NCBI GenBank assembly: GCA_964421635.1
Contig: CAYQWZ010000005.1
Coordinates: forward strand, 2,748 to 66,747
Direction of reading: 5' to 3'
From: an uncultured Candidatus Saccharibacteria bacterium
GTDB lineage: Bacteria; Patescibacteriota; UBA1384; CAILIB01; JAUSJZ01
DNA length: 64,000 nt
The first letter of the stretch is position 1. Each line of letters begins with the position of its first letter. The notes beneath the pieces were generated by a model. It was not told the DNA's origin and searched no databases. It saw only the letters and a program-made list of their open reading frames with translations. Of this stretch, positions 8,101-54,059 are shown in pieces. The position numbers and the translations under genes were made by a program.

Positions 8101-11100
8101 TTCAAGATCCAGTTTCTAATACAGCTAGTACCGAATACGGAATCTACCAAGCTGGCACTAACTGGGATTATGGTGGCTATTTTGAAGACGATCTTCGTAC
8201 AACCGGCATGGACATTCAACAAGCTAGTGCTGATCCGCAAATTCACTTTGATTTCTACTCCTCCGGAGCAAGCGATAACACTGGTGAAACAGTCGCCGGC
8301 ACTGGCGCTGATGATGCTTCTATGGGAACAATTGCTTGGTCTAACCCCAGCAGAGTTACGGCTGATGATGGGTCACGAGCACAGTGTATCTTTTCTGGAG
8401 TCAGCACCTGTCACTATCTCAAAGCAACAAACTTTGGTTTTAGCATTCCCGAAGGCTCATCTATCATCGGCATAGTGGCAACAGTAGAAGGATTGTGTCC
8501 GGTATGGTCAGGTGCGGCTACATGGGAATCTGTACGACTAGTTGATGGAGACGGGACTATTGTGGGAGATGATAAATCCCCGGATACTGCTTTTCCTTCT
8601 GGCGAAGATACAAAAACTGATTTTGGTGCATCCGATAACACCTGGAGCGCCTCTCTAGATAGAAATGACATCAATGATTCAGATTTTGGTTTTGTTTTTA
8701 CAGGTTCAAGATCAGGAGGACTTAACTCCCAACTGTTAATTGATGCTATGTACGTCACGGTCTATTATTCCAGCGCCGAACAAGACTACGACTGGACCAT
8801 GGGTATTGATGAAGATGCCGGTGGAATATTTGCTATCTCCAGAAGCGCCGGTACGCTGGGTAGTAATAACGCTCTCACAATCGATTCAAACAGCGACGTC
8901 ACCATCTCTTCCGACTTATCTGTCACGGACACCTTGACCGTAAACGGAGTCAACGCCGCTGGTGGTTCTGCTGATGCCACCACACTAACGGGCACTCTGG
9001 GTGCTATGGATGGTTCTGATACTTACCGCGGCTTGTATCTCAATTACACCAACGCTGACCACACCGGTGCCAGTAATGTTTTTTATGGATTAGATATTGC
9101 CGGTATTACTGCCGACGCCGACGCCACCGAATATGCAATGAATATTGGAGCCGGCTGGGATGCTGGTCTTTATATCGCTGATGGTGCCACTTATTCCTTA
9201 CAGTTAGCCTCCACTGATGGCGATGCGGCTTCAGGAATAACTTTTGGTACAGACACTAACCTCTACCGCAGTGCTGCTGACACCCTGAAAACAGATGATG
9301 CCTTAATTGTTACTGGCCATACCACCTTTGAGGGAGTTACTTCTACAGGTGCTACTGGTACCGGAAAGTTAGTCTACGACAACACACCCACTTTAATTAC
9401 CCCTGCCCTGGGAGCAGCCACCTACACTACCTTATCTGGTGGTAATATAACCAATTCAGCTTTAACTTCGGGTAGAGTTACTTATGCTGGCACAGCCGGA
9501 ATCCTGCAAGACTCTGCCAACATGACATTTGATACCACAAACGGTCTAAAGCTGGCCGCCGGAAGCGCATCCGCTCTTCAACTCACCTCAACCGCTGGAA
9601 CCTCAGTGGGTGGAGTTATGTTTGGTGCAGATACTAATTTATATCGTGTCTATGATACGGAAGCCCGATTACAAACAGATAATCCTCTAAATGTTGGTGG
9701 AACAATACAAATAAATCCATTTATCAGTGGTGGTGGTTATGTTTCTACCTACTCCTATCGTGATGATACAGGTGGTGGTGGACTTTCAACAAATGCCGCT
9801 AGAGGCACAAGGGCCACCCCAACTGTAATTCACGATGACGACTATTTAGGTAACTTTAACTTTAATGGTTACGATGGAAATTCTTATGAAATAGGTGGTC
9901 AGTTTAGATTTATGGTTGATGGAACAGTTAGCGATGGGGTTGTACCGGGAAGGTTTGAAGTAAATACAACTACTTCTGGAGGAGTATCAACTTTAGGACT
10001 AACTTTAGATAGTGCCCAAAAGCTCTGGCTTGGTAGCACCTTAGACACCAACCTTTATCGCGGTGCCGCTAATGAATTAACAACCGATGATCTCCTCTCC
10101 TTCAGCTCGACTAAAGCTGCCAACGCCGTCGACTTCAAATCCTACAAACCAGATAGCGCTGGCGGAGCTCAGTTCTTATTTAACACTTCAGCCGCAATTT
10201 CATCCGCCACCATCTTTGCTGTACAAGAGAATGGTACAAACGCATTTCTAATTGATAAAGATAATCAAGTCTTAATGCCCGCTGTTTATAACGACACTGT
10301 TGGTGGCACTAATCGCGACTTATTTATAGATAACACTGGTAAACTGGGATATGTCGTCTCTTCAGAAAGATATAAAGAGAACATAGTAGCATTGCAGAAC
10401 AATAACACTGACTGGCTTTATGACCTACGACCAGTATCCTTTGATTATAAAGATAAAAATCTCGGCGTAGATCAAATTGGTTTAATAGCCGAAGAGGTAG
10501 CCGAAATATTCCCTAATATTGTTAGCTACAGCCGTGAAAATCCAAATCTGGCTGAGACAGTTAGTTACAGTAAATTAGTTGTGCCGTTGCTTAACGAAGT
10601 ACAAAATCTTAACCAAGACTTGTCTACTGTAGATATTGCAGTAGCACAAATTCAGTCGGACATTATTGAAAGACTGACCACTCAGACTGCTATCCTTAAT
10701 ACCATTGAAAGCTCTGCCGGTAAAGATTTGGTACTCAAATCAAGTTCAGGCAAAGTTATTGTTGATTCTTCTATTGAGGTAAACGGCAAAGTGATCTTTC
10801 ATAATGATCTGACTGTCCACGGAGAAATCGCTGGTGTTAGTATTGACCTTGAAGAAAATAAATCGACTGGTCGAGGTACAATAGTCAATAACGAAGATAA
10901 GGTATATATCAAAACAGATATTATTGAGCCAGACGACAAGGTACTGCTAACACCTATTATCACAAATAAAAACGAAACTGACTTACAGGGTAACAGCGTT
11001 CAGCTTTACAGAGGTATTATAGATGAGGGCATCGGATTTTGGGTACACGTCATTAGCAGTCGCGATTTAGAGAAAGAATTGCCGTTCGATTGGCTAATAG

Positions 11101-11108
11101 TCAAATAG
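5181..11108 (+). CDS. giant secreted repeat protein (1975 aa) with C-terminal tail-fibre-type intramolecular chaperone (Peptidase_S74-like) domain
   Basis: Single uninterrupted ORF; N-terminal signal peptide (..VFVPLQAESA); long G/T/A/S-rich beta-repeat region with large internal duplications; a lectin-like segment (~8.25-8.77 kb); near the C-terminus GYVVSSERYKENIVALQNNNTDWLYDLRPVSFDYKDKN..IGLIAEEVAEIFPNIV..SYSKLVVPLLNEVQNL matches the endosialidase/T5 L-shaped tail-fibre chaperone motif (S-x-x-R-x-K-x-N-I ... PV-x-Y/F-x-YK ... G-x-IAQEV ... Y-x-x-L-x-P-L-L), followed by a predicted coiled-coil. Confidence 0.9.
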   Translation: MKGGQITREFKLWRPLSRVFVWAVLALVVFVPLQAESAINKQLQFSGKLTKSDKTNVTNGAYGFKFEIFSVASGGSALWTETWNGSSSKITVTDGLFSIALGTYTDLSVVDFNSSSLYLAISFDPGNDGTYEELFTTRIRLTSSPYSLNSDKLDGKDESEFADLSEAETISNDWLFGEDIRFGDADNSNYIGFQAPANISTNVIWTLPSVDGTVNQVLKTDGNGTLSWADSSSGTIDLTSEVTGTLPITNGGTGQITAANAINALLPTQTGNSGKYLTTNGSVSSWAAVAGGGASNIADLDDVTISSVADNEIFQYDNGTSKWINQTFAEAGIAVTGDLHDAVTVVDSDTIDFTLSTQQITAIVIADSIDDTHIDWGSGANQVDLDDIPDGTSYERVAAAQLSSGIYIDASTATKGIASFTAADFDAASGVISIDYANGTAASGAAKGFLTAADWTTFNSKQAAGSYITSFTLAGTSGSNQTISQGDTLTIAAGTDITTTGGATDIITVANSSTLATVTGRGATTTTLVNLDGGIAVDTSNFTVSGTTGATAITAVNAASGSLNALGLSGTLGIFNGTDTFRGIYLNYTNANHTGSSNYVYGLDIAAITADAEATERAINVGVGWDVGLYIADAATYSLQLASTDGDAASGITFGTDTNLYRSAANTLKTDDALIVTGHTTFEGVTSTGATGTGKLVYGTSPTLATPILGAATYTTLSGGNITNSALTSGRLTYAGTSGILQDSANMTFGATYGLTLAAGSTSGLQLSSTAGTAAGGILLGTDTNIYRSAANILKTDDSFTVGTNLVVTGSTTLDTSLTGMVKASSGVISAASAGTDYLVPGGTLFTLAGTSGSNQTISQGNTLTIAAGTDITTTGGATDTVTVANSSTLATVTGRGATTTTLTNLDGGIAIDTDNFTVSGTSGALAIAGAMTTGTAANISFDSAGQTGALTGLNVDFSNITADGTNTVYGIHVQDPVSNTASTEYGIYQAGTNWDYGGYFEDDLRTTGMDIQQASADPQIHFDFYSSGASDNTGETVAGTGADDASMGTIAWSNPSRVTADDGSRAQCIFSGVSTCHYLKATNFGFSIPEGSSIIGIVATVEGLCPVWSGAATWESVRLVDGDGTIVGDDKSPDTAFPSGEDTKTDFGASDNTWSASLDRNDINDSDFGFVFTGSRSGGLNSQLLIDAMYVTVYYSSAEQDYDWTMGIDEDAGGIFAISRSAGTLGSNNALTIDSNSDVTISSDLSVTDTLTVNGVNAAGGSADATTLTGTLGAMDGSDTYRGLYLNYTNADHTGASNVFYGLDIAGITADADATEYAMNIGAGWDAGLYIADGATYSLQLASTDGDAASGITFGTDTNLYRSAADTLKTDDALIVTGHTTFEGVTSTGATGTGKLVYDNTPTLITPALGAATYTTLSGGNITNSALTSGRVTYAGTAGILQDSANMTFDTTNGLKLAAGSASALQLTSTAGTSVGGVMFGADTNLYRVYDTEARLQTDNPLNVGGTIQINPFISGGGYVSTYSYRDDTGGGGLSTNAARGTRATPTVIHDDDYLGNFNFNGYDGNSYEIGGQFRFMVDGTVSDGVVPGRFEVNTTTSGGVSTLGLTLDSAQKLWLGSTLDTNLYRGAANELTTDDLLSFSSTKAANAVDFKSYKPDSAGGAQFLFNTSAAISSATIFAVQENGTNAFLIDKDNQVLMPAVYNDTVGGTNRDLFIDNTGKLGYVVSSERYKENIVALQNNNTDWLYDLRPVSFDYKDKNLGVDQIGLIAEEVAEIFPNIVSYSRENPNLAETVSYSKLVVPLLNEVQNLNQDLSTVDIAVAQIQSDIIERLTTQTAILNTIESSAGKDLVLKSSSGKVIVDSSIEVNGKVIFHNDLTVHGEIAGVSIDLEENKSTGRGTIVNNEDKVYIKTDIIEPDDKVLLTPIITNKNETDLQGNSVQLYRGIIDEGIGFWVHVISSRDLEKELPFDWLIVK
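6590..9660 (+). repeat. large intragenic protein-level repeats inside the giant gene (unit ~6590-7715 repeated at ~7715-8060; unit ~6890-7560 repeated at ~8995-9640)
   Basis: Near-identical amino-acid stretches (e.g. FTLAGTSGSNQTISQG(D/N)TLTIAAGTDITTTGGATD..; YLNYTNA(N/D)HTG...LYRSAA(N/D)TLKTDDALIVTGHTTFEGVTSTGATGTGKLVY) encoded with many synonymous nucleotide differences. Confidence 0.85.
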
Positions 11109-30456: not shown

Positions 30457-30503
30457 GGCTTCACTCCTTCACTCTCATAATAGCAAATTGAATAAAAAAA
30501 AAT

Positions 30504-30530
30504 GCCTGCCCTAACTATTGTCAGGCAGGC
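30504..30530 (-). terminator. GC-rich palindrome family copy 1 (GCCTGCC-n13-GGCAGGC) acting as terminator of 30521-31561
   Basis: Hairpin immediately at the stop codon, followed on the minus strand by T9. Confidence 0.6.
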
Positions 30531-31561
30531 GGAGTTTGACCACGCGCGTCTTCGGCTCTTCTTTCTATTAAGTCTTGTAGCACTTCGGGTGGATAATGCC
30601 ACTCTGGCCGATTGTTCCCAGCGACTCTTTTCTGTCGTCGCTTACCTCTGATTCTATTTAGCACCCAGGTAAGACTTTTACCAACCCTTCTACTTAATTC
30701 ACATGTTGTGAGCCAATCTCCTGCTTCAACAAGTCTATTTACCTCAGGCCTTAATTCGTCAACTATTTCAGGAGGATAATGGATAAATATCTTACCCGAC
30801 CCAGGAATTCGTCTTAACTCTCCATCGGTACGACCTTTAAGACGAGCTCGAACCCATAAATAATCTTTTCCAAGTATGACAGCAATACTATGAGCACTTA
30901 ACCAGTCACCCCTTTCTAGATATTTATTAGACAGACCTTTGAGAATAGGTAATACCCACGGAGGCCAATGTCTAGTAACTCGGTTAGCTTTATTTGCCCG
31001 TTCTTCTCCGGGCTGATTCATCTGATCTAAACGGCTACCAATCCAGAGACGAGAACGACCTAGCTCTTGTGTCATATATCCCATGGTAATCCAGCCATTT
31101 GCCCCTTTACTCTCAGCTGACATCCTTACAAGTTCCGGAATAACCGCCAGAGGATAACAACGAAACACTCCGCCTCTGCAAATTCGTTTCTCATTAGGAA
31201 AGGGCAAACTTTCTATTCGTGCCTTGACCCACTTATAGCTCCTACCAACTCTGGAATATATTTGACCAACTGATAGCCAGTCTCGAGCAGGCTGGTACAG
31301 CCCAGAATCGTTCTCTTGTCGGCGTAGCTTTCTAAGTAAATTCGACAATAGTAGTAGCCTGTCATATATCCAGACTCGAGCCTCACCGTAATGCTCAAAT
31401 GTCATTTTACTTTCCCAAGCCCGCTTATAAACAAGCTCTACAATATTTCGTGCATCATGAGTGTCAAAAACCAGACTGATAGCACCACTTAGCAGGATTT
31501 CTTCTGTTGCTGTTTTGAATCGAGCGAACCTTTGAGCTCGTTGTTCATCTACCAACCTCAT
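30521..31561 (-). CDS. hypothetical protein with four tandem Trp-containing HTH-like repeats
   Basis: 346 aa, GC-elevated; repeats RDWLSVGQIYSRVGRSYKWVKARI / NGWITMGYMTQELGRSRLWIGSRL / GDWLSAHSIAVILGKDYLWVRARL / GDWLTTCELSRRVGKSLTWVLNRI. Confidence 0.65.
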   Translation of the reverse strand: MRLVDEQRAQRFARFKTATEEILLSGAISLVFDTHDARNIVELVYKRAWESKMTFEHYGEARVWIYDRLLLLSNLLRKLRRQENDSGLYQPARDWLSVGQIYSRVGRSYKWVKARIESLPFPNEKRICRGGVFRCYPLAVIPELVRMSAESKGANGWITMGYMTQELGRSRLWIGSRLDQMNQPGEERANKANRVTRHWPPWVLPILKGLSNKYLERGDWLSAHSIAVILGKDYLWVRARLKGRTDGELRRIPGSGKIFIHYPPEIVDELRPEVNRLVEAGDWLTTCELSRRVGKSLTWVLNRIRGKRRQKRVAGNNRPEWHYPPEVLQDLIERRAEDARGQTPPA

Positions 31562-31646
31562 CTTTCAACCTCCTTCCCGCTGAAGTTACTCTGTACAAGA
31601 GCACTCTTATCAAAACAAGAAAAGTTATTTAAACCAATAAAAAAAT

Positions 31647-31671
31647 GCCTGCCGACTATTGTCAGGCAGGC
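31647..31671 (-). terminator. GC-rich palindrome family copy 2 (near-identical to copy 1) acting as terminator of 31689-32450
   Basis: AAAAATGCCTGCCGACTATTGTCAGGCAGGCGG; T-run follows on the minus strand. Confidence 0.6.
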
Positions 31672-31688
31672 GGTTGGTAGGTCTTGTC

Positions 31689-32450
31689 TTACTCTTCGTC
31701 GAAGATGCGAAATGCTCGTTGCAGGTATGCAGTGACTTTTGTCATATCAAGTTGGTTTTGAGGATTACGCAACTGCCCTTCAGCATCAATGCTGAGAGTT
31801 GGCCACAGCTGGGCCATCCTTTCAATTGGCTCCAATGTGTCTGGCCCCAAGCCACCAGCCACAACAAGCTGAAAGTATTGGCCGTGCGAGATATTGATAG
31901 CACCAAGTCTTTCAACTGTAGCATCGGAATCGAATGGCAAGCCACGACCTCGGCTGAAATCTACTAAAACATAGTCAAACAGCTTGTGATATTTAGTCAG
32001 TTTGTATAACAGCTTATTCATGCTTCCAGTTTCTGTAATAGCAGCTCGACTGATTTGCATCACCAGCAGATCTTCAGGATACACCGTACGATACACTTTC
32101 AACATCTCAACCTCTGGCCATGGATGGTTGATTTGAGTTCCGTGACAGTGTTGTCCGCCCATTTCTCTGGCTTCCATAACACCATTTAGAGGGGTTTGTT
32201 CATCTTCGCCAATGCAGTAATGAATAAGGTTGAGTGCTCGTTTGTCTGGTGAGAAAATTTGGGACAATTGATTCGGCGGTGGTAAACGAGTGTAGCCAAC
32301 TAACACCCCTACCATCAAGCGATGAGTCGAATGGTTTGGCACCGCAGCCAAAGCTTGCGCCACCTCCGAGCCGGTAGTGAAGCCGGTAGCACCAATGTAC
32401 GGTGGCGCTTCTCTTGACATGTCAGTTCTCCTCCCATTTACTCGTATCAC
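31689..32450 (-). CDS. TIM-barrel protein, weakly phosphoribosylanthranilate-isomerase (TrpF)-like
   Basis: 253 aa, GC-elevated; ..SRGRGLPFDSDATVERL.. and ..VVAGGLGPDTLEPIERM...LSIDAEGQLRN resemble the TrpF phosphate-binding C-terminal half; assignment tentative. Confidence 0.5.
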   Translation of the reverse strand: MIRVNGRRTDMSREAPPYIGATGFTTGSEVAQALAAVPNHSTHRLMVGVLVGYTRLPPPNQLSQIFSPDKRALNLIHYCIGEDEQTPLNGVMEAREMGGQHCHGTQINHPWPEVEMLKVYRTVYPEDLLVMQISRAAITETGSMNKLLYKLTKYHKLFDYVLVDFSRGRGLPFDSDATVERLGAINISHGQYFQLVVAGGLGPDTLEPIERMAQLWPTLSIDAEGQLRNPQNQLDMTKVTAYLQRAFRIFDEE

Positions 32451-32883
32451 ATCGCTGAGATTCTCTCAGCTCAGTCAAAATGCGATCAACATGCTCGAGT
32501 GTCATGTAGCCTTCCGGCAACTGCACACCATCATCCGACAATACCTCTCTGAACAATGCATTGAGCTGGACGCCTGTAGGATTATTGCCAAGAGCCTGCA
32601 TAATGCGTTCCATAAGATCTTCCTCAAAAGCAGGCATCTCAATTTGAACAGCTTTCAGCATACACCCAAGCAACACAGTTTCCATAGAAACCAAAACGGC
32701 TTCGGCAACTGGAAACTGAGCTTTTGACAGGGAACCTGCAGTTATCGGCAAGTACTCTTTGCCCGCACCTCGTGAGAAGCGAACTGACCAGCTAGGATCG
32801 TTCTCAGAACCTTCAGTAAACATGATGAATAGGTCAAAAGGATTTGTCACAATCCCAAGAGCAGCTTCGAGTTCCATTTCCAC
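32422..32883 (-). CDS. hypothetical protein
   Basis: 153-aa ORF (GTG at 32883 or ATG at 32877), overlaps next gene by 29 nt (operon); preceded by conserved leader element. Confidence 0.5.
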   Translation of the reverse strand: MEMELEAALGIVTNPFDLFIMFTEGSENDPSWSVRFSRGAGKEYLPITAGSLSKAQFPVAEAVLVSMETVLLGCMLKAVQIEMPAFEEDLMERIMQALGNNPTGVQLNALFREVLSDDGVQLPEGYMTLEHVDRILTELRESQRCDTSKWEEN

Positions 32884-32895
32884 ACTCTCTTTCTA

Positions 32896-32922
32896 CGCTT
32901 TCGCGCTCTCACAAACTACCAG
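32896..32922 (-). promoter_or_regulatory. conserved 27-nt leader element copy 1 (minus strand CTGGTAGTTTGTGAGAGCGCGAAAGCG)
   Basis: Exact duplicate of element at 33229-33255, each 13-20 nt upstream of a start codon; contains GCGC-GAAA-GCG mini-hairpin. Confidence 0.5.
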
Positions 32923-32983
32923 TAATCAGCTATAGAAGTCAATAAAAAAACTGCCTTCCCCCGAGGAAAAGCAGCTAGATCTA

Positions 32984-33211
32984 CTATGAAGGTATACGAA
33001 ACCAAATGATCAAAAATAATGGGTTGAAAAGAAGCGTGCCACCAAGACAGACCATTAGAGTAGTAGTGCCGTAACTGTCAAACTCCTGAGGGTTACGAAA
33101 AGCCCACCATAGCTGTACAGTACATACAAGCAGAATTGCCAATCCCATTAGTCGATAGTTAATCATATTGTGATCCCAGAATTCAATGATCGCACCTATC
33201 GCGTTTTTCAT
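32984..33211 (-). CDS. small membrane protein
   Basis: 75 aa, two TM helices, RBS GAGGAAGGA upstream; preceded by leader element copy 2. Confidence 0.5.
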   Translation of the reverse strand: MKNAIGAIIEFWDHNMINYRLMGLAILLVCTVQLWWAFRNPQEFDSYGTTTLMVCLGGTLLFNPLFLIIWFRIPS

Positions 33212-33228
33212 ACCGTCCTTCCTCTCTG

Positions 33229-33255
33229 CGCTTTCGCGCTCTCACAAACTACCAG
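33229..33255 (-). promoter_or_regulatory. conserved 27-nt leader element copy 2
   Basis: Identical to 32896-32922. Confidence 0.5.
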
Positions 33256-33312
33256 AAAAGAACAGTAGTAGTCAACAAAAAAAGCCCCGGATAAATCCGA
33301 GACTGGAGGTAG

Positions 33313-33723
33313 CTACTTGCGTCTCATGCGAGCTGAAGGATGGTTAAAGTCCAAGAGTATAGTTCCGTTTTCTCCACATATGACTCGCCCGTCACGAAGA
33401 GCAAGGTTTATTCTGGGTCTAGTTGTGCTAAACAATGTAACGGTCAACCCTCGTGGACCCTCCACACAAGGAAATGATTTACTTACGATATTCCACTTCC
33501 TGCAGAATCTATCAACAAAGATATGGCCTCCTATTGTTGCTTTTTCAAAATCCTCTTCGGTTATTGGCAAACTACTGATCTGTCCCCAAACCCAGCACTT
33601 CGCGATAGATTCGAATGAATTCAGCACTGGCTCTATTGACACCAAACTCGTCAAGCACCTGACCTCGAACGGTCGGATGATGGAACTGCAATTGCTCATC
33701 ATAAAGCTTCTCGAGCAAACCAA
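33313..33723 (-). CDS. hypothetical protein (start uncertain; overlaps 33572-33913 in another frame)
   Basis: ORF ending just before a hairpin+T7 terminator (33270-33300 on minus strand); N-terminal 50 codons overlap the neighbouring ORF, so the true start may be internal. Confidence 0.4.
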   Translation of the reverse strand: MVCSRSFMMSNCSSIIRPFEVRCLTSLVSIEPVLNSFESIAKCWVWGQISSLPITEEDFEKATIGGHIFVDRFCRKWNIVSKSFPCVEGPRGLTVTLFSTTRPRINLALRDGRVICGENGTILLDFNHPSARMRRK

Positions 33724-33913
33724 TCACTTCTTCAAACTTCTCGGCACCTTGTTCAGATGCATACAACAAAAGGCTAATGATTTTACCTGAACAGTTTTCG
33801 CAGTTGTTTAAGAGTGTTTCAATGCGTTGCCATTGTTCAAATGTAAGCACCTCTGCAAGCTTCTCTTGAAACTTTTGCTTCAGTGCTTCTCTCATTGTGT
33901 CGTCTGCTGACAT
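33572..33913 (-). CDS. hypothetical helical protein (CENC motif)
   Basis: 113-aa ORF, helical composition, GC-elevated. Confidence 0.5.
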   Translation of the reverse strand: MSADDTMREALKQKFQEKLAEVLTFEQWQRIETLLNNCENCSGKIISLLLYASEQGAEKFEEVIGLLEKLYDEQLQFHHPTVRGQVLDEFGVNRASAEFIRIYREVLGLGTDQ

Positions 33914-34004
33914 GTGGCTCTCCTTCCTAATTAGACTCTAGCCAAATATATTACTTTAATCAATGCAAAAGTGATTATCGCTGAATATTTAAGGATTAAA
34001 AAAC

Positions 34005-34024
34005 TGCCTGCCGGTCGGCAGGCA
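34005..34024 (-). terminator. GC-rich palindrome family copy 3 (TGCCTGCCGG-TCGGCAGGCA)
   Basis: 10 nt downstream of stop of 34034-34342; followed on minus strand by T6. Confidence 0.55.
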
Positions 34025-34033
34025 AGCCTTACC

Positions 34034-34342
34034 CTATACGGGCTCGGCAAGGGTTAGTAGACCAGCGTCTACAAGAGTATCTTGTACTAGATTCAGCAGC
34101 TGTCCAGGTGGTCCGAAGACAATCAGCTTAAGTAGATCGCCTCGTTGCCCACCATCTTGGCAGACAACTACTACTGTTTCGCCATCACAAAGAATAATGT
34201 TGCTGCCAGGCGTAACACATTCGGTGCCCTGTGCTCGACTACCCCAGCCGCGAGCAACAAAACCGCGCTCTACACAATGTCGCCACACGCCCTCTAATCT
34301 TTCGCGCGCTCGCTCCAGCAGACCCTTCTCTGACTCTGACAT
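34034..34342 (-). CDS. hypothetical protein, GC-elevated
   Basis: 102-aa ORF with dedicated palindromic terminator. Confidence 0.5.
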   Translation of the reverse strand: MSESEKGLLERARERLEGVWRHCVERGFVARGWGSRAQGTECVTPGSNIILCDGETVVVVCQDGGQRGDLLKLIVFGPPGQLLNLVQDTLVDAGLLTLAEPV

Positions 34343-34421
34343 CCTTTTCTCCCTAAAATATAGGATATCAAAAAAATCAGCCCTTATTGCTGCTATTCAA
34401 TTTCTGCATACTGAAAAATTT

Positions 34422-34661
34422 CTATTTCACCAACAGCTCTAAAGCAAAGTAAACTAGATAAGCTGGCCAGACGATGGCTTTCAATAAACCAACGACGCCT
34501 GCGCCAAAAGTAGCTGCTTGACCTATAAAGTATACCGCCGCTCCAATTAAGCCAAGGCCGTAAACTCCACCGCCACCATGATGATAGCGTCGCCTGTCTT
34601 TACGACACTCTTTTCTCCATTCTCTCCACTCTTTCCAATCCTTTTTATCTTTTGTATTCAT
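34422..34661 (-). CDS. small Gly-zipper membrane protein
   Basis: 79 aa; basic N-terminus then GGGGVYGLGLIGAAVYFIGQAATFGAGVVGL. Confidence 0.45.
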   Translation of the reverse strand: MNTKDKKDWKEWREWRKECRKDRRRYHHGGGGVYGLGLIGAAVYFIGQAATFGAGVVGLLKAIVWPAYLVYFALELLVK

Positions 34662-34752
34662 GTTTTAATTATATCTCAAATCTAGAAGCGCAAGCTAATA
34701 ATTTTTTTTGGCTACTATACTTGGTATAATGACGGCAGGAGGATACGACCCC

Positions 34753-35034
34753 ATGATACTCTTCGCTGTCGGTAAGCAGACAAATGGTTGGGGAGGATAT
34801 CAGTGGCAATCCTATTTCGTAGTAGCCCAAAACGAAGCTGAAGCAATTGAGCTAGTTGATCGCTACTCCGGCGAAGGTTACTGGAGCAATCATCCCGACC
34901 CACCCACAGTAGTTGTAGTGGCAAGTTCAATCGATATCGTCCCTGGTATGCCTAAAATCTTCCCTATAGATTCACTTTGTGCACCCCGATTCTTCCCATC
35001 CGATGTGCCCACTCTAGCACCTCTAGTCATTTAA
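34753..35034 (+). CDS. hypothetical protein
   Basis: RBS AGGAGGA 11 nt before ATG at 34753, extended -10 TGGTATAAT upstream, perfect intrinsic terminator downstream (ORF track shows longer 34708 start). Confidence 0.55.
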   Translation: MILFAVGKQTNGWGGYQWQSYFVVAQNEAEAIELVDRYSGEGYWSNHPDPPTVVVVASSIDIVPGMPKIFPIDSLCAPRFFPSDVPTLAPLVI

Positions 35035-35042
35035 CACCTGTA

Positions 35043-35070
35043 GCCCCAGCATCACCGCTGGGGTTTTTTT
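35043..35070 (+). terminator. intrinsic terminator
   Basis: CCCCAGC-atcacc-GCTGGGG followed by T7. Confidence 0.8.
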
Positions 35071-35098
35071 ATTTATTATTAATTCCCTGCAAAAAAAC

Positions 35099-36133
35099 TT
35101 AAGGGGCAATATTGTTACCTGCCTTATTTGAATTTGAATTGCTATTCTGTTGGCCTCCACCACTTTGTTGAGCACCTTCACCAGCTGTTCCGTTTACCTC
35201 AACACTCCCCTCGGCATTACCCCCAACACCACCATCAACAGTATTTTGATTAACAGTGTTGGCTGAATTTGTCGTGCCACCATCAGTTGTGTTTACAATA
35301 ACCACATTGCTAGTCGTTGTTTTGGAATCACCAACCACCACCATACCACCCGCTTTATAACTATCAATCACCGAACCATCACTCATCTGAATTTTCCAGA
35401 CTCGCTTACCCCCTGTTGTAACTGAATTTGGACCAGTTCCCGGCGCATATTCAATCTTTAAATTACCTTGTTTATTTTGAGATATTTTACCCTCTCCTTG
35501 GTCAATAATTACTCCATCATTATCTGTAATTTTGTCACCTGGTGCATAAACACGCGATTCTTTATCTACATCTATTTTTACTGTCATTCCTTTAGGATCA
35601 CGCCAAACCGTTACTACTCGATCTACAAAATTATCAACTGTCTCCTCATCTTGAGAAGTGGCAAGAGCTTCTCTCATTCTATTAACAGCTCTCTCTTGAA
35701 CCTGAGCAATGGTTTCTTTTGTGGCACTACTTTGAGTCTCTTGACGCACCTGAGATAAAACCGCCTGTCGCTCAATAACATTCTGCTCTGATGTATCTAT
35801 TAAATCATCTTCTGTATTATCACTTTCTAGCCGAGAGCTCATACTTCCTTCTAAATATTCATACCGCTGCGCCAGTTTTTCTACTCTATCTTGCTGACCC
35901 GACGCATCTGCTACCTTAATTTCTTCGGTACGCTTAGTCGCCAATTCGTTCATTAAGGATACTTTATTTTCATGACGCCAAGTTAGAAGATGCAAACTTA
36001 TCCATTCTTTTGAGTACGTCCATCTAGATGGTAATTGATTTTCATCGGCAGCCCGAACTACTCCGGTGCCTGCAAACAGACCGAGACATATAATAAAACC
36101 GCCTAGGGCTAGTTTTGTTTTTGTGGTAGACAT
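35099..36133 (-). CDS. secreted G/T/N/S-rich protein
   Basis: Signal peptide begins at the internal MSTTKTKLALGGFIICLGLFAGTGVVRA (ORF track start 36214 probably too long); C-terminal third is low-complexity G/N/T/S. Confidence 0.6.
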   Translation of the reverse strand: MSTTKTKLALGGFIICLGLFAGTGVVRAADENQLPSRWTYSKEWISLHLLTWRHENKVSLMNELATKRTEEIKVADASGQQDRVEKLAQRYEYLEGSMSSRLESDNTEDDLIDTSEQNVIERQAVLSQVRQETQSSATKETIAQVQERAVNRMREALATSQDEETVDNFVDRVVTVWRDPKGMTVKIDVDKESRVYAPGDKITDNDGVIIDQGEGKISQNKQGNLKIEYAPGTGPNSVTTGGKRVWKIQMSDGSVIDSYKAGGMVVVGDSKTTTSNVVIVNTTDGGTTNSANTVNQNTVDGGVGGNAEGSVEVNGTAGEGAQQSGGGQQNSNSNSNKAGNNIAP

Positions 36134-36333
36134 AGAGCTAATATTAAGTAAATAGCTGGTATAACAAACAACACCCAGAGTAGAAGGTAAACACCATCTC
36201 GTGGATCGAACCAATCGAACCAGGTGATACCGACAATGATGCCGAGTGATATCAGCGACAACTTAAATAGCCCCATCTGCCACCAACGCAAAGTATAATC
36301 TTTAAAAAATCTCATCTTGTCTAAATTATACAC
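36109..36333 (-). CDS. small membrane protein
   Basis: 74 aa, two TM helices, overlaps downstream gene by ~25 nt. Confidence 0.4.
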   Translation of the reverse strand: MYNLDKMRFFKDYTLRWWQMGLFKLSLISLGIIVGITWFDWFDPRDGVYLLLWVLFVIPAIYLILALCLPQKQN

Positions 36334-36365
36334 CTCTTTCTTCAGTTTGCTATAATATTGATGTA

Positions 36366-36785
36366 ATGCTAATAAAAAATCCTGTGCTGTCGTTGAAAGT
36401 CGGTTGGTTAGTTGTAACTATTTTAGTTTTTCTAGACGCTTTTTTAGATTCTAAGCGAGGGGTAGAAGGTAATCCCCTATGGCAACCAATTGTGGAAAAG
36501 ATTGGCATTCAGAATATTTATATTCTGGTTCCTTTTGTCTTATTATTATTTTGGCTGGTAGTTAAATTTGGTGGCTGGTTAACCGCTCGTATTGACAAGA
36601 CCCCTCAAGCCGAAGAGCTGGTGTTAACTGCTTTGGTCCTAGTCTACGGTCTCTTTGATCTTTGGGTTATCGCCGTCGACTTTTTGAATTTCCACTTAAT
36701 TACTAATTACCGGTTGTTGGTTATCCCCCTGACTATCATTGCTGTCTTTTATGCTGTTTGGGCAGAGAAAAAACTTAAGCAATAA
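36366..36785 (+). CDS. polytopic membrane protein, hypothetical
   Basis: 139 aa, four hydrophobic helices. Confidence 0.55.
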   Translation: MLIKNPVLSLKVGWLVVTILVFLDAFLDSKRGVEGNPLWQPIVEKIGIQNIYILVPFVLLLFWLVVKFGGWLTARIDKTPQAEELVLTALVLVYGLFDLWVIAVDFLNFHLITNYRLLVIPLTIIAVFYAVWAEKKLKQ

Positions 36786-36799
36786 TTGCCTCTAATAGA

Positions 36800-37075
36800 T
36801 TACTTTTCAATACTAATAGCATGTCCATCTACAATTGCCTCAGCTAATTTTTGATGAGCCGAAGAAAGGATCCTCTGAAAAGTGCTTTGTGATGTTTCCA
36901 TTATCTTAGCAGAAGCCGTCTGGTTAAGTTTCTTTTTATATTTAAGACGCAGAACTTCACCTTCTTCTCTGGTCAAATTAATTACTTCAATCTCGCGCAA
37001 TCTAATTCCAGATGGCTTAAAGAATGTTGCTTTGGGTCGGAATTTAATCCTTTTTTTTAATCTCGGTCGGGCCAT
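36800..37075 (-). CDS. DUF134/UPF0251-family predicted DNA-binding protein
   Basis: MARPRLKKRIKFRPKATFFKPSGIRLREIEVINLTREEGEVLRLKY...IMETSQSTFQRILSSAHQKLAEAIVDGHAI matches the UPF0251 pattern (R-rich N-terminus, FKP-G, sigma-70 region-4-like HTH). Confidence 0.65.
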   Translation of the reverse strand: MARPRLKKRIKFRPKATFFKPSGIRLREIEVINLTREEGEVLRLKYKKKLNQTASAKIMETSQSTFQRILSSAHQKLAEAIVDGHAISIEK

Positions 37076-37076
37076 A

Positions 37077-37277
37077 TTAGCAAAATTCTCCCTGCATCAA
37101 ACTCTCGCACTTAGGACATTTTATTTCAACGCAAGGCACACCCCGCTTATTATGTGTCTTTTTATATCCACACTTTGGACAGATACATTTGCTTGAGCCA
37201 ATTGGACCTTCTCCACGACGATTCGCACCACGAACAAAATCATTGCCACTATTTCCTGTTTTGTCTTTATTAGGCAT
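37077..37277 (-). CDS. small Cys-rich zinc-ribbon protein
   Basis: 66 aa with CxCPKCGY...CxxxxCPKC pairs; 1 nt from DUF134 gene. Confidence 0.55.
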
Positions 37278-37376
37278 AGTCTAATATTTATTACTTATAT
37301 CTTTATGAGTATATACCCATAACGATATTAAGTCAAAAACCTAAAAAGCCTAATTTGAATAAGGTCTAATTGGCTC

Positions 37377-37396
37377 CCTGCCTGCCGGCAGGCAGG
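37377..37396. repeat. GC-rich palindrome family copy 4: perfect 20-nt palindrome CCTGCCTGCCGGCAGGCAGG
   Basis: Identical to copy at 39188-39207 including 4 flanking nt (GCTC); lies 3' of gene 37484-38164; no adjacent T-run. Confidence 0.8.
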
Positions 37397-37483
37397 CTCA
37401 CCTTAGACGCTATTGGAACTTTTTCTCAACCCTAGGCTCCAATCGCTTTACGCAATTGAGAGCCGAGGTGTTGAGATCATGCC

Positions 37484-38164
37484 TCACCCCCTAAAGGCTT
37501 GATTAGCTATCTTACTGCCCAGATATGTTACTGCGTAGGCCTCGCCTGATTCTTCCGTATCACGTCGTTCTATCAAACCTTGGTTGAGTAGGAACCTTAA
37601 CAAGGCAACGATCCGATCTGCATCCATTTGTGATAGGTGCTGATCGATCAGGTTGGTTAACGGAACCACCCTCTCACTCAGTGACACAAGGATCTCAAAC
37701 CAGTCTGAGCAATGAATCATTCTGCCTAGCACATTAGAGGTGCCCCCTTTGAAATAGACAGAGATCAGTTCGCAGGTGGACTGAACACATCCAAGAAGTT
37801 GGATATATGACTCTGCCACAGACAGCTCAGCTGCTACAACCGTTAAGGAAATGGGAAGGAGCTCACGCTCTCTCAGCACACCAACGAACAAGTGAAGGAG
37901 CCTATCCAGTTCTTCGCGACGACCAAGCGCCATCCATTCTATCACGCGAAGAAAGAGCGTTTCTCTGATTGCGCGCACGGCACATACAGCAGCTTGATAC
38001 GGTTCTCCACCCTTGATCTCTCCGCTCCGTAGGAAGTCGATACTCTCTCCCACAAGAGTGGCTATATCCTCTGGCTGTGGCAACAATATCACATTGGCAC
38101 CTAACTCTCTCGCCCTGTTAACGAGCCTACGTTCCTCTTCAGTCATTTCGATTAGCTTCGTCAT
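37484..38164 (-). CDS. hypothetical protein, GC-elevated, possible C-terminal winged-helix
   Basis: 226-aa ORF; no homology recognised. Confidence 0.5.
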   Translation of the reverse strand: MTKLIEMTEEERRLVNRARELGANVILLPQPEDIATLVGESIDFLRSGEIKGGEPYQAAVCAVRAIRETLFLRVIEWMALGRREELDRLLHLFVGVLRERELLPISLTVVAAELSVAESYIQLLGCVQSTCELISVYFKGGTSNVLGRMIHCSDWFEILVSLSERVVPLTNLIDQHLSQMDADRIVALLRFLLNQGLIERRDTEESGEAYAVTYLGSKIANQAFRG

Positions 38165-38230
38165 GTCGCGCCTCCTAACAAGGAGTCTAGCAAAACGTTT
38201 ACTTTTGTCAACTATTCTTTACGATTATAT

Positions 38231-38259
38231 TGACTTTACAGGTTAATTATGTTACAATA
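38231..38259 (+). promoter_or_regulatory. sigma-70-like promoter TTGACT-17-TACAAT giving leaderless or near-leaderless transcript
   Basis: -10 hexamer ends 5 nt before the GTG start at 38265. Confidence 0.5.
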
Positions 38260-38264
38260 TTTAT

Positions 38265-39014
38265 GTGAAAAAGGAGGATATTCTTCAAAAACTTAATGCC
38301 TTGCACTTCAGTGATAGCGAGGCAAAAACATATATTGCCCTGCTTCAAATTGGACAAACTCCAGCAGGAAAAATCATTAAACGCACTAGTCTACACCGAG
38401 CTGTAGTATATGCGTCCTTAGACAAGCTCATCGATCGCCATCTGGTTATGAAGGTTGAGCGCGATCACATCGCTCATTTTCAGGCACTCTCATTGGAACG
38501 ACTCACTGACTACACTACCAACCTACAACAGCAAGCGAAAAGTCTCGTTAAAGAACTAAAGTACATCAGTAATGACGAACGACCTGAAATTGTCGTTTAT
38601 GAAGGACTGCGTGCTTACCAACAGTTTTGGCTTGAATCACTAGACCGTATGCCTGTTGGCAGCATTAATTATGTTGCCGGGTCGATTGGTGATACCTGGA
38701 ATGAACTGCTTGGCAGCAAATCAAAAGAGTACGTCAAACGACACTTGCAGCGTAAGATCATGTGGCAAATGATTGTGTACGATCGTAACCAAATCGACGA
38801 ACAGTTACGCGAGAAGTATCCAAAATATCATAACTATCGCTTAATTAAGCGACCTATGTCCCGTTTAGGAAATTTTAACTTAATGGGAGAGGAGACTGTA
38901 GTACTCCACTCCACTCAGGGGCCATTGGTTATCGAGGTTCGCAGCAAAGCCCTCTATGACGTCTTCAAAGATATCTTTGATCTAATGTGGGATTTTGGTA
39001 AGGAAATAAGATAG
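38265..39014 (+). CDS. TrmB-family transcriptional regulator
   Basis: N-terminal TrmB HTH (LHFSDSEAKTYIALLQIGQTPAGKIIKRTSLHRAVVYASLDKLIDRHLV), GTG start. Confidence 0.7.
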   Translation: MKKEDILQKLNALHFSDSEAKTYIALLQIGQTPAGKIIKRTSLHRAVVYASLDKLIDRHLVMKVERDHIAHFQALSLERLTDYTTNLQQQAKSLVKELKYISNDERPEIVVYEGLRAYQQFWLESLDRMPVGSINYVAGSIGDTWNELLGSKSKEYVKRHLQRKIMWQMIVYDRNQIDEQLREKYPKYHNYRLIKRPMSRLGNFNLMGEETVVLHSTQGPLVIEVRSKALYDVFKDIFDLMWDFGKEIR

Positions 39015-39065
39015 CCTTTCGAAAGAACGACTAAACCCCACCCACTTCATACTTTGTTCTAATTT

Positions 39066-39140
39066 TGGCTCCTGGGGTCGGATTCGAACCGACAACCTAG
39101 TGATTAACAGTCACTTGCTCTACCATTGAGCTACCCAGGA
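39066..39140 (-). tRNA. tRNA-Asn (anticodon GTT)
   Basis: Minus-strand 75-nt cloverleaf TCCTGGG-TA-GCTCAATGGTAGAGC-A-AGTGA-CTGTTAA-TCACT-AGGTT-GTCGGTTCGAATCCGAC-CCCAGGA-G-CCA; 7-bp acceptor, T-loop TTCGAAT, encoded CCA. Confidence 0.85.
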
Positions 39141-39176
39141 TTAAATTGTTTGATCCATTCTCTTCCTTCACCACAT

Positions 39177-39227
39177 GTCACTTGCTCCCTGCCTGCCGGC
39201 AGGCAGGTACCATTGAGCTACCCAGGA
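39177..39227 (-). repeat. duplicated 5' fragment of tRNA-Asn (acceptor 5' strand + D-arm + start of anticodon stem) interrupted by the 20-nt palindrome
   Basis: Minus strand reads TCCTGGGTAGCTCAATGGTA-[CCTGCCTGCCGGCAGGCAGG]-GAGCAAGTGAC, identical to tRNA positions 1-20 and 21-31, then diverges; lies 37 nt upstream of the intact tRNA. Confidence 0.8.
39188..39207. repeat. GC-rich palindrome family copy 5 (perfect 20-mer) inserted in tRNA-Asn fragment
   Basis: CCTGCCTGCCGGCAGGCAGG, identical to 37377-37396. Confidence 0.8.
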
Positions 39228-39299
39228 TCAAATTTTGTGTAGCCAAAAAATTTTGACTACTTCTGAAATTTACCAGAACTAGCCAAATATTTCAACCTT

Positions 39300-53714: not shown

Positions 53715-54059
53715 TTATACTTTTTCGAGGTTTGTTACTCTGGCTTTGACTTTCTCCATTTCTTCCGAAGAAATTTGTACTACATCGGACAGTGTTATAA
53801 CTAACTCATCGTGATGACGATTAATTAGTTCTCTATTTTCTTTTATAAATAATCTATTTAGCTTTATCTCTTCGGTATTTTGTCGAATTCCTTCTGCGTT
53901 TTGTTTGATTCCTTCTGAGTTTTGTCGAATTCCTTCTGCGTTTTGTTTGATTCCTTTATGCAAAACTCCCTGTCCTTCTTCTAATTTCGACAGTTTTATC
54001 AGAACAATTTTCTCGAATTTCTCTTTTTTCATCGTAAAAACATTATAACAACAAACCAC
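53715..54059 (-). CDS. coiled-coil protein with 4 tandem 8-aa repeats (GI(K/R)QN(A/S)E)
   Basis: Likely start MKKEKFEK (~54029); tandem 24-nt DNA repeats ~53876-53962 encode EGIRQNSEGIKQNAEGIRQNTEEIK. Confidence 0.55.
   Translation of the reverse strand: MVCCYNVFTMKKEKFEKIVLIKLSKLEEGQGVLHKGIKQNAEGIRQNSEGIKQNAEGIRQNTEEIKLNRLFIKENRELINRHHDELVITLSDVVQISSEEMEKVKARVTNLEKV

Follow-up and report, generated by a model that had tools for sequence, protein, structure and literature searches.

A probable mobile 20-bp palindrome associated with GIY-YIG nuclease/tRNA cassettes, and its hairpin relatives in a Saccharibacteria genome

Five GC-rich hairpins clustered in the genome of an uncultured Candidatus Saccharibacteria bacterium probably represent one family, derived from a mobile 20-bp palindrome (here termed PAL) that is tied to a cassette of a GIY-YIG nuclease gene and tRNA copies, with the cassette of this region being decayed. 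The DNA analyzed was a stretch of 64,000 nucleotides, referred to throughout as the window, and the coordinates of its relevant features are listed in Table 1.

A search for the pattern GCCTGCC-N(0-20)-GGCAGGC returned exactly five matches in the window (30504-30530, 31647-31671, 34006-34023, 37380-37397 and 39191-39204). All five were within a span of 8.7 kb and none was found in the remaining sequence, in agreement with the original prediction. By chance no match is expected, as 0 were detected in 100 dinucleotide shuffles. The five hairpins are related, consistent with the single palindrome family that had been proposed, and are of two classes: copies 1 to 3 are canonical intrinsic terminators, and copies 4 and 5 are exact PAL, i.e., the 20-mer CCTGCCTGCCGGCAGGCAGG, which forms a perfect, loop-less palindrome of two 10-nt arms. 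The identity of these two 20-mers and their four additional common bases, GCTC on the left (family D7), had been correctly anticipated.

Table 1. Hairpin copies and tRNA-Asn cassette features of the window.
Feature	Position	Strand	Description
Copy 1	30495..30532	-	Predicted intrinsic terminator after 346-aa ORF 30521-31561; dG -17.8 kcal/mol, z -4.75
Copy 2	31640..31673	-	Predicted intrinsic terminator after 253-aa ORF 31689-32450; dG -18.9 kcal/mol, z -4.31
Copy 3	33998..34026	-	Predicted intrinsic terminator, 10 nt past the stop of ORF 34034-34342; dG -22.5 kcal/mol
Copy 4	37377..37396	.	Solo exact PAL; 1.8 kb from the copy 5 cassette
Copy 5	39188..39207	.	Exact PAL inside duplicated tRNA-Asn 5' part
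tRNA-Asn displaced fragment, first piece	39208..39239	-	About 12 nt of upstream flank plus nt 1-20; duplicate of 39121-39152 (family D12, 91%)
tRNA-Asn displaced fragment, second piece	39177..39187	-	nt 21-31 (GAGCAAGTGAC); identical to 39110-39120
Intact tRNA-Asn (GTT)	39066..39140	-	ARAGORN; Rfam RF00005, 75.5 bits
GIY-YIG ORF remnant	39131..39176	-	ATG TGG, deletion junction, last 11 sense codons (plus junction codons) ending in GEGREWIKQFNPG and stop
Promoter-like site	39267..39295	-	TTGAAA-17-TAAATT with TG; upstream of displaced fragment

Copies 1 to 3 were each found to consist of a GC-rich hairpin followed by a U-tract (U9, U7 and U6, respectively) 3' of a gene on the same strand, and by this arrangement are predicted to work now as terminators of three minus-strand genes. 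At copies 4 and 5 a U-tract was looked for and was absent. The terminator role of copies 1 and 2 and the lack of T-runs at copies 4 and 5 are as originally described, and the suggestion that the family acts in part as terminators is supported. The hairpin of copy 1 is GCCUGCCUGAC-AAUA-GUUAGGGCAGGC, with PAL-type arms and a 13-nt centre, while copy 2 has an 11-nt centre and nearly the same sequence, such that both copies can be written as AAAAATGCCTGCC[CTA/G]ACTATTGTCAGGCAGGCGG; the near-identity first noticed for this pair thus holds. Copy 3, TGCCTGCCGGTCGGCAGGCA at 34005-34024, matches PAL at 9/10 positions in each arm around a 4-nt centre (CtTGCCTGCC-GACC-GGCAGGCAGt; family D7, 79%). Descent of copies 1 and 2 from PAL is suggested by the similarity of their arms (8/8 and 6/8).

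Copy 4 is located between two co-directional minus-strand genes (37484-38164 and 37077-37277), and a U-run, a tRNA fragment and a GIY-YIG remnant were all absent from its vicinity. The position of copy 5, inside a partial duplicate of tRNA-Asn, was overlooked in the original prediction. This copy is a precise 20-nt insertion between gene nt 20 and 21 (between GGTA and GAGC) at the 3' end of the D-loop, and its paralogous empty site is at 39109-39132. The duplicate is of the 5' part of the tRNA (about -12 to +31) and is 87 nt upstream of the intact gene, with homology stopping where the anticodon loop begins. The ATG TGG that opens the ORF remnant corresponds to the usual M-W start of the GIY-YIG family, and its stop codon, TAG, is provided by nt 8-10 of the intact tRNA-Asn. 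Relatives have the same start, C-terminus and stop arrangement (e.g., L167, ending in GIGREFLKIIIPR and stop, and L169, ending in GCGREFLKQFRPS and stop). With nothing but the ATG TGG and the 11 final sense codons left, the GIY-YIG ORF of the window is a pseudogene. The promoter-like site probably now drives the leader and tRNA-Asn. The layout that we define as a PAL/GIY-YIG tRNA cassette (a partial tRNA duplicate with PAL in an arm loop, an ORF, and an intact tRNA in which nt 8-10 provide the stop) was found in the window, with the ORF in remnant form. No GIY-YIG gene was detected by tblastn in its 64 kb, and present-day activity in the source genome is therefore at most putative.

Beyond the window, exact PAL was detected in at least 120 genome loci of many phyla, with hosts that include Patescibacteria, Bacteroidota isolates, Omnitrophota, Planctomycetes, Gammaproteobacteria and Bdellovibrionales and with DNA that is mostly of low GC content, as well as in 35 viral stretches. 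In more than 150 other loci PAL was mostly without a T-run, and hairpin loops, arrays of short tandem repeats and fragments of tRNA were frequent locations. Of the PAL sites, 12% were surrounded by inverted repeats 6 bp or more in length, compared to 3% of controls, and nested PAL-in-PAL cases were found along with degenerate copies. A paralogous empty site was identified for 16/167 PAL sites compared to 0/771 controls; all 16 comparisons revealed an exact 20-nt insertion, with nothing gained or lost. Abutting direct repeats were absent from 73/127 PAL sites and 1 nt in length at 38/127. Across 252 PAL flanks, composition was near random at -12 to -2 and biased only at -1 (A, 41%), and sequence conservation ended exactly at the edges of the 20-mer. 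Taken together with the recurrence of the cassette described below, the empty sites and precise insertion support a mobile palindrome family, and on this point the idea of mobility originally put forward gains substance.

To analyze the cassette independently of PAL, homology to GIY-YIG was used as the sole criterion for retrieving 80 loci. Exact PAL was found in 27/80 of these nuclease-selected loci, ending 13-51 nt before the ORF, and a close variant (3 edits or fewer) in 18/80. PAL or its close variant was thus in 45/80 loci and always in the non-functional tRNA duplicate. The layout of the window, but with the ORF intact, recurred in metagenomes: it was detected in 56/80 loci overall, with an intact tRNA beginning between -18 and +84 nt relative to the end of the ORF, and was at tRNA-Asn in L166, L167, L170 and L229. 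PAL followed tRNA nt 20-24 in 20/34 mapped cases, in the same GGTA/GAGC context as copy 5. A second class had the tRNA upstream of the ORF, and here the T-loop of the duplicate, located downstream, contained a PAL-arm hairpin. Variants retained the arms CCTGCCTG...CAGGCAGG, between which the centre measured 4-28 nt. PAL was exact although the ORFs were only 43-62% identical to the query. The cassette protein is about 80 aa and matched PF01541 in relatives (E 2e-15 to 5e-17), where the ORF of the GIY-YIG catalytic domain was found, the window holding its pseudogene; relatives of solved structure are UPF0213 (E about 1e-12) and the SLX1 structure-specific endonucleases.

By these results the anatomy of the window, the precise insertion, the tie to the nuclease cassette and the structure of the terminators are shown, whereas the enzyme that moves PAL, and the route by which it does so, are inferred. 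PAL is a discrete 20-bp insertion unit that enters DNA precisely and without target duplication, and it favors the loops of hairpins and the centres of palindromes, its own centre included. The cassette is composed of a stand-alone GIY-YIG gene (~80 aa; UPF0213/SLX1-like) between two direct tRNA copies, of which one works and the other is dispensable; the D-loop or T-loop of this second copy carries either PAL or a hairpin with PAL arms. The structure-specific nuclease may nick extruded hairpin loops, mostly close to its own gene, and PAL may be set into the breaks so made, with insertions persisting only in dispensable DNA. Nicking near its own gene together with survival in dispensable DNA would account for PAL in the loops of pseudo-tRNAs as well as for the local cluster by a dead cassette. 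In the window, the tRNA-Asn cassette marked by copy 5 has lost its nuclease gene by deletion save for the first two and last 11 sense codons, and copies 1 to 3 are probably derivatives that, having gained a U-tract and a centre of 4-13 nt, serve as terminators today. Against this reading, GIY-YIG enzymes cut DNA and are not known to join it, and thus host repair or ligation must be assumed. In addition, no strain polymorphism was seen, as ten independent contigs of the source population are essentially identical to the window.

PAL may instead be a parasite in its own right, drawn to hairpin loops and mobilized by another enzyme or by replication or repair, that accumulates beside GIY-YIG genes only because the pseudo-tRNA fragments there are rare tRNA-like hairpins in which an insertion does no harm; we regard this as unlikely, if still worthy of serious weight. 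Such a parasite would fit the absence of the nuclease gene within ~700 nt at more than 90% of genome-scan PAL sites, the location of PAL in whichever tRNA duplicate is non-functional (5' or 3' of the ORF), and the GIY-YIG/tRNA cassettes that are without any palindrome. In some cassettes (L049, L166, L215, L224 and L191) this position of the D-loop was occupied by other, unrelated GC-rich palindromes, and thus PAL is perhaps merely tolerated there and not placed by the nuclease. By contrast, an independent parasite would not account for PAL or a close variant in 45 of the 80 loci selected without reference to it, nor for its density: exact PAL was counted 32 times in 190 kb of nuclease-selected loci versus 6 secondary copies in ~846 kb of PAL-selected loci, i.e., ~20 times denser near the nuclease gene than near other PAL copies. 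In addition, no gene other than GIY-YIG, and hence no alternative enzyme, recurred within 700 nt of PAL among 120 loci. Also considered, and judged improbable, was a selected cis-element, in which the hairpin blocks either the recombination or slippage between the tRNA repeats by which the ORF would otherwise be lost, or the processing of the fragment as a tRNA, and solo copies are leftovers. PAL does cut the ~40-nt repeat into pieces of ~20 and 10-15 nt, is always in the non-functional duplicate, and is conserved far better than the ORF. However, the need for one exact sequence would remain unexplained, as would the precise solo insertions remote from tRNA, whether in hairpin loops, in arrays of tandem repeats or within PAL, and T-loop insertions at nt 55 keep a 55-nt repeat whole.

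The original prediction had favored a REP/RAYT-type (REPIN) system, with a link to IS200, or a MITE-like element. Its view of one family that in part serves as terminators and may be mobile was supported, but the assignment to REP/RAYT, IS200 or a classical MITE was not, and we now consider a system of this type highly improbable. PAL shares with these elements its small size, GC-rich extragenic palindromes and partial role as terminators. However, no REP tetranucleotide tag (GTAG or CGTC) was found in the 252 PAL flanks, which are random in sequence, and PAL is a perfect and not an imperfect palindrome. The proposed search for a RAYT or IS200-like gene likewise returned no Y1 transposase (IS200/IS605-like) among the 25 Pfam families listed of 58 matched by 50 window ORFs; the recurrent neighbour gene is instead the ~80-aa GIY-YIG nuclease. 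REPs are lineage-specific, whereas the sequence of PAL is the same across phyla. MITE-type terminal inverted repeats are present as the 10-nt arms, but PAL is not a classical MITE because target-site duplication was absent (no abutting repeat at 73/127 sites and exact empty-site comparisons in all 16 cases). An autonomous parent bounded by PAL arms was not found either, the nuclease ORF being beside a complete PAL and not between its arms. The least probable reading, that the hairpins are ordinary terminators with convergent stems or an assembly or sequencing artefact, with nothing mobile, is already contradicted. Copies 1 to 3 are indeed good terminators, but copies 4 and 5 are without a U-run and copy 5 interrupts a tRNA duplicate cleanly. 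The region was reproduced by ten contigs of independent assemblies of the source population, nine at 100% identity and L001 with one mismatch, and PAL occurs in cultured isolates, in degenerate and nested form, and with paralogous empty sites.

The preferred reading, of a mobile palindrome tied to a GIY-YIG cassette, was compared to known systems. In genomic islands that integrate at tRNA genes, a tyrosine integrase is encoded and it is the 3' part of the tRNA that is duplicated, with the direct repeat at the far end of the island. The window resembles them in having a partial tRNA duplicate beside an intact tRNA, but the duplicate is of the 5' part (family D12) at a distance of 87 nt, and nothing but an ORF remnant separates the two. 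A second copy of the tRNA 3' segment was absent from the window (3 or fewer mismatches allowed), and no integrase was among the 25 Pfam families listed of the 58 matched by the 50 window ORFs; an island of this type is thus not supported. The SDR elements (small dispersed repeats) of Nostoc, of 21-27 nt, were reportedly described in cyanobacteria by Elhai and coworkers in 2008 (Genome Res 18:1484, as cited in PMC3116915). SDR are similar to PAL as mobile-looking hairpins of ~20-27 nt that are intergenic or in short tandem-repeat arrays and have no known transposase. Unlike SDR, PAL is spread over many phyla as well as phage contigs, and a protein partner recurs beside it.

PMC3116915 and PMC3733652 describe REP/REPIN elements as short, multi-copy, GC-rich extragenic palindromes, partly terminators, whose movement in trans is ascribed to a nuclease-type gene, present in a single copy and with the repeat on its flanks, and the latter source portrays REPs as specific to lineages. 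PAL is similar in being a short GC-rich palindrome, partly a terminator, with a nuclease-type partner gene, but differs in that it has neither the GTAG/CGTC tag nor a Y1/HUH enzyme, is perfect, loop-less and the same across phyla, and is associated with a GIY-YIG nuclease gene embedded in tRNA duplications. IS1397 targets the loops of REP/BIME (PMC94167, as cited in PMC3116915) and, like PAL, inserts into the loop of an existing palindrome; IS1397 is, however, a full-length IS3-family element with a transposase and target duplications, compared to the 20 bp of PAL and its lack of target duplication. Free-standing GIY-YIG homing endonucleases (T4 Seg, I-TevI) are similar to the cassette in that a small selfish GIY-YIG ORF is located at conserved genes such as tRNA, as for phage T4 SegB, which lies in the T4 tRNA gene cluster (PMC2330249), and in both cases flanking conserved sequence could provide homology for spread. 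Unlike Seg and I-TevI, the predicted cassette protein is ~80 aa, with the catalytic domain only and no DNA-binding domain, and is closest by sequence to UPF0213 and SLX1. The cassette also differs from homing endonucleases in its partial duplication of the tRNA and in the conserved 20-bp palindrome that accompanies it, and in that its intact tRNA would still carry any target site.

No description of PAL was found in the literature searched. We tentatively suggest, as a possibility that we hold to be less likely than not, that PAL and the ~80-aa SLX1/UPF0213-like GIY-YIG protein may constitute a previously undescribed minimal mobile system, in which a structure-specific nuclease from a cassette within duplicated tRNA genes would set a 20-bp perfect palindrome into hairpin loops in many bacterial phyla and their phages. 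If so, PAL would rank with the smallest mobile units of DNA on record, and the protein would be the first GIY-YIG enzyme in the role that RAYT has for REPs.

A pattern search of the window for GCCTGCC-N(0-20)-GGCAGGC hairpins returned five matches, numbered here as copies 1 to 5 by rising coordinate, and the same pattern was not matched in 100 dinucleotide shuffles of the window. All five were found within 8.7 kb and none elsewhere in the 64 kb, which confirms the cluster described in the original prediction. Its account of individual copies was likewise accurate: copies 1 and 2 are near-identical and differ by CTA versus G in the loop, and copies 4 and 5 are the same 20-mer, CCTGCCTGCCGGCAGGCAGG, a loop-less palindrome of two 10-nt arms (termed PAL), each with GCTC as its left flank and neither with a T-run.

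Hairpins and other features of the window (window coordinates)
Feature	Coordinates	Strand	Context	Properties
Copy 1	match start 30504	minus	predicted terminator directly after stop of ORF 30521-31561	U9; -17.8 kcal/mol, z -4.8 (folding)
Copy 2	match start 31647	minus	predicted terminator directly after stop of ORF 31689-32450	U7; -18.9 kcal/mol, z -4.3 (folding)
Copy 3	match start 34006	minus	predicted terminator directly after stop of ORF 34034-34342	U6; -22.5 kcal/mol, z -3.5 (folding)
Copy 4	37377-37396 (match start 37380)		solo PAL between two co-directional genes	exact PAL; no U-run
Copy 5	39188-39207 (match start 39191)		within displaced tRNA-Asn fragment	exact PAL; no U-run
tRNA-Asn(GTT)	39066-39140	minus	sole tRNA in window	ARAGORN, Rfam
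Displaced tRNA-Asn fragment	39177-39239		upstream of tRNA-Asn gene	87 nt from intact gene
Promoter-like site	39295-39267		upstream of displaced tRNA fragment	
Other terminators	32949-32976, 33283-33304, 35042-65		same stretch as copies 1-3	stems unrelated to copies 1-3
Higher-GC stretch	30.5-38.2 kb		ORFan throughout	0.44-0.45 GC vs 0.37-0.40 adjoining
Tryptophan-rich ORFan	30521-31561	minus		346 aa; internal repeats (...W..V..R...)
Direct repeat	32889-32950 and 33222-33283		ORFan stretch	62 nt, 84% identical
Long internal repeats	6585-9290		inside 1975-aa ORF 5181-11108	245-300 nt, 74-78% identical
Tandem array	53857-53940			21-nt period, TTTTGTCGAATTCCTTCTGCG-like units

With one genome scanned per species, exact PAL was found in at least 120 stretches, compared to fewer than a handful of chance matches expected in 596 Gb by our own arithmetic. 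The hosts include Patescibacteria, Bacteroidota (among them the cultured Winogradskyella, Flagellimonas, Longitalea and Flavivirga), Omnitrophota, Planctomycetes, Gammaproteobacteria, Bdellovibrionales and Thermodesulfovibrio, and most host contigs have a GC content of 31-47%. Exact PAL was also detected in 35 stretches of viral contigs. Six of these copies reside on a single 29.5-kb contig (IMGVR_UViG_3300037242_000417), several within longer repeats of about 50 nt in both orientations, and on two further viral contigs PAL occupies the variable loop of a tRNA-Met, which is otherwise full length in L155 (2284-2303; PAL between CCACGAGG and TCGCCGGTTCGAATCC) and lacks part of the T-arm in L132 (8616-8635).

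Sequence conservation among PAL copies ends exactly at the edges of the 20-mer, with flanking positions -12 to -2 random and position -1 alone biased (A in 41%), and no target-site duplication was found at PAL sites. For 16 of 167 PAL sites, the same locus also holds a paralogous empty site (12+12 nt, ≤2 mismatches), compared to 0 of 771 control junctions, and inverted repeats of at least 6 bp flank 12% of PAL sites versus 3% of controls, an enrichment of about four-fold. PAL was found nested within PAL at five loci (L028, L052, L031, L135 and L153), and degenerate copies are also present. Taken together, these sharp edges, empty sites, inverted-repeat enrichment, and nested and degenerate copies indicate that PAL behaves like a separate unit, inserted and subsequently decaying, and is neither an artefact nor an operator. 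Insertion polymorphism, for which the original prediction suggested comparing strains, was not observed: ten contigs of the window's population from several assemblies, chosen by exactly identical flanking proteins, showed no empty or filled alleles and matched the window almost completely (nine at 100% and L001 with one mismatch). Contigs of this population from independent short-read assemblies (L002, L004, L005 and L003) end at 38071, 39135 and 37346, several of them at 39135 within the duplicated tRNA-Asn segment and others near copy 4; the palindrome and the duplicated tRNA segment thus fragment short-read assemblies.

Several PAL sites were found in 5' fragments of tRNA upstream of a small ORF, itself followed by an intact tRNA (L047, L116, L128 and L162), and the ORF was identified as a stand-alone GIY-YIG domain (PF01541) related to structure-specific nucleases (UPF0213, E about 1e-12; SLX1, E about 1e-4). 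As an unbiased test of this arrangement, termed the cassette, 80 metagenome loci were fetched solely by homology to the GIY-YIG protein. By this approach, exact PAL was detected in 27 of the 80 loci, ending 13-51 nt upstream of the ORF, and a variant with up to 3 edits in a further 18. An intact tRNA (Asn, Lys, Arg, Leu, Phe, Gln, Val and others) was present in 56 of the 80, starting -18 to +84 nt from the end of the ORF, whose stop is often the TAG of tRNA nt 8-10. The upstream fragment duplicates the cassette tRNA, beginning at about -5 or +1 and ending at either nt 29-41 or nt 62-76, and PAL follows tRNA nt 20-24, between GGTA and GAGC, in 20 of 34 mapped cases. PAL remained exact although the ORFs diverge to 43-62% identity.

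In a second class of cassette, the intact tRNA and its terminator precede the ORF, and a downstream duplicate of the tRNA 3' part carries a hairpin of PAL arms (CCTGCCTG, 11 nt, CAGGCAGG) in its T-loop. In the cassettes, the palindrome or its arm hairpin is therefore always in the non-functional duplicate, on either side of the ORF, and a role of PAL as 5'-UTR or regulatory element of the ORF was rejected. At L202, the ORF has a PAL-bearing pseudo-fragment of tRNA-Asn on either side (one at about 1450-1470, the other downstream); in these, PAL comes after nt 9, between CCCGGTA and GCTC, and both precede the intact tRNA. A member of the GIY-YIG family inserted within a 23S rRNA gene (L103, 4773-5021) has no adjoining PAL. 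Clustering at 90% identity gave at least 7,223 clusters for the GIY-YIG family, all annotated only generically, as "GIY-YIG nuclease family protein" or "putative endonuclease".

Within the window, the segment upstream of tRNA-Asn repeats about 12 nt of the tRNA 5' flank and its first 31 nt. Copy 5 is the only interruption of this repeat and separates GGTA from GAGC precisely, at the 3' end of the D-loop, such that the intact tRNA-Asn serves as a built-in empty site. The 36-nt spacer between fragment and gene opens with ATG TGG, the usual M-W start of the GIY-YIG family, and its translation in another frame ends in GEGREWIKQFNPG followed by the TAG of the tRNA, in agreement with how proteins of the family end (KSGxGREFLKxxxPR) and with the placement of their stop. 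Cassettes of tRNA-Asn with an intact ORF and PAL at the same position were found at L166, L167, L170 and L229. Based on this start, C-terminus and stop, and on these intact counterparts, copy 5 is read as a PAL/GIY-YIG cassette whose ORF lacks about 65 codons. The relic has probably survived because it now carries the promoter of the tRNA. No GIY-YIG gene was detected in the 64 kb by tblastn with three family members as queries, and an Rfam search of the window revealed nothing besides tRNA. The 66-aa ORF neighboring copy 4 was ruled out as a nuclease remnant, as it encodes a zinc-ribbon protein.

The original prediction that some copies double as terminators was borne out for copies 1-3, which by sequence and folding are predicted to be canonical intrinsic terminators on the minus strand, each a GC-rich hairpin followed by a U-run. 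The arms of copy 3 match PAL at 9/10 and 9/10 positions around a 4-nt center, and copies 1 and 2 keep 8/8 and 6/8 of the arms CCTGCCTG/CAGGCAGG around centers of 13 and 11 nt. The loop motif of copies 1 and 2, ACTATTGTCAGGCAGGC, is confined to the window's population; two viral matches, neither of them in a hairpin, were dismissed as chance. A PAL copy that gained a few bases in its center beside a T-run would provide a ready-made terminator, which would account for copies 1-3. The elements within the window are relics and domesticated terminators.

The 20-mer is inserted precisely and without duplication, with a preference for loops and palindrome centers, and is tightly associated with the nuclease cassette. 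We infer that hairpin loops, once extruded, may be nicked by the nuclease, for the most part close to the nuclease gene, and that PAL may enter at the nicked loops via host repair. Insertion into a working tRNA would be lethal, and this is proposed to be why insertions are seen only in redundant duplicates. Local action of the nuclease would explain both the five family members within 8.7 kb of a dead cassette and the density of exact PAL, with 32 copies in 190 kb beside nuclease genes versus 6 secondary ones across about 846 kb of other loci. Under the main rival to nuclease-coupled insertion, PAL is moved by a different agent and the loops of pseudo-tRNAs simply tolerate it, a view favored by the finding of other palindrome families in the same tRNA loops, of certain cassettes devoid of any palindrome, and of most solo PALs with no nuclease gene nearby. 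Other short GC-rich palindromes (e.g., TCCGCCAGAGGCGGA / CCGCCAGCTGGCGG, CCTCCCGAAGGGAGG and CCGAACGTACCGTTCGG) were observed beside PAL or in displaced tRNA fragments, where they take the same D-loop position (L049 at about 870-905; upstream of the ORF in L166, L215 and L224; L191/L192; flanks of L026 and L021), and the tiny hairpin inserts seem to comprise several families.

The window is otherwise ordinary chromosome by Pfam (RecA, SecA, FtsK and aminoacyl-tRNA synthetases). The higher-GC ORFan stretch, with Pfam and PHROGs matches absent or negligible, may represent an island, but no repeat of the tRNA 3' end was found in the window, and the cassette is likewise unlike an integrase-type tRNA island. 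CapA homologues reach no more than 54% identity and have no neighbors in common; the best match, from Candidatus Andersenbacteria, places the source among the patescibacteria. The tryptophan-rich ORFan is without Pfam or PHROG match. Each copy of the 62-nt repeat lies beside an unrelated terminator and a small gene on the minus strand, and the repeat may be a leader or promoter region present twice.

PAL is similar in logic to the REP/RAYT system but has no tag and is identical across phyla; no Y1 enzyme was among the Pfam families listed for the window (best 25 of 58), and the gene beside PAL elsewhere encodes GIY-YIG rather than the RAYT or IS200-like partner originally predicted. The earlier reading was partly right: precise insertion and empty sites support a family of mobile palindromes, some of which also serve as terminators, whereas the proposed enzyme and REP/RAYT class were not supported. 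PAL resembles a MITE in its inverted termini but lacks target duplication and a parent element. Like free-standing GIY-YIG homing genes, the cassette is a selfish ORF in conserved genes, but its protein has no DNA-binding domain and the intact target is left beside it. The nearest precedent in size is the SDR repeats of Nostoc, reportedly described by Elhai (2008). The 18-nt palindrome core CTGCCTGCCGGCAGGCAG was absent from about 8 million full texts, and literature on GIY-YIG with tRNA, palindrome, MITE, Candidate Phyla Radiation, UPF0213 or YhbQ yielded nothing relevant; with no published description found for PAL or the cassette, the family appears to be undescribed and unusual.

If the coupling of PAL to the nuclease is real, it would provide a function for a very large family of small GIY-YIG proteins, an explanation for the partial tRNA genes that confuse tRNA annotation, and an example of a 20-bp sequence able to pass from one phylum to another and to be converted into terminators. 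The spread of very short palindromic repeats is now directly testable with one 20-mer and one 80-aa protein.
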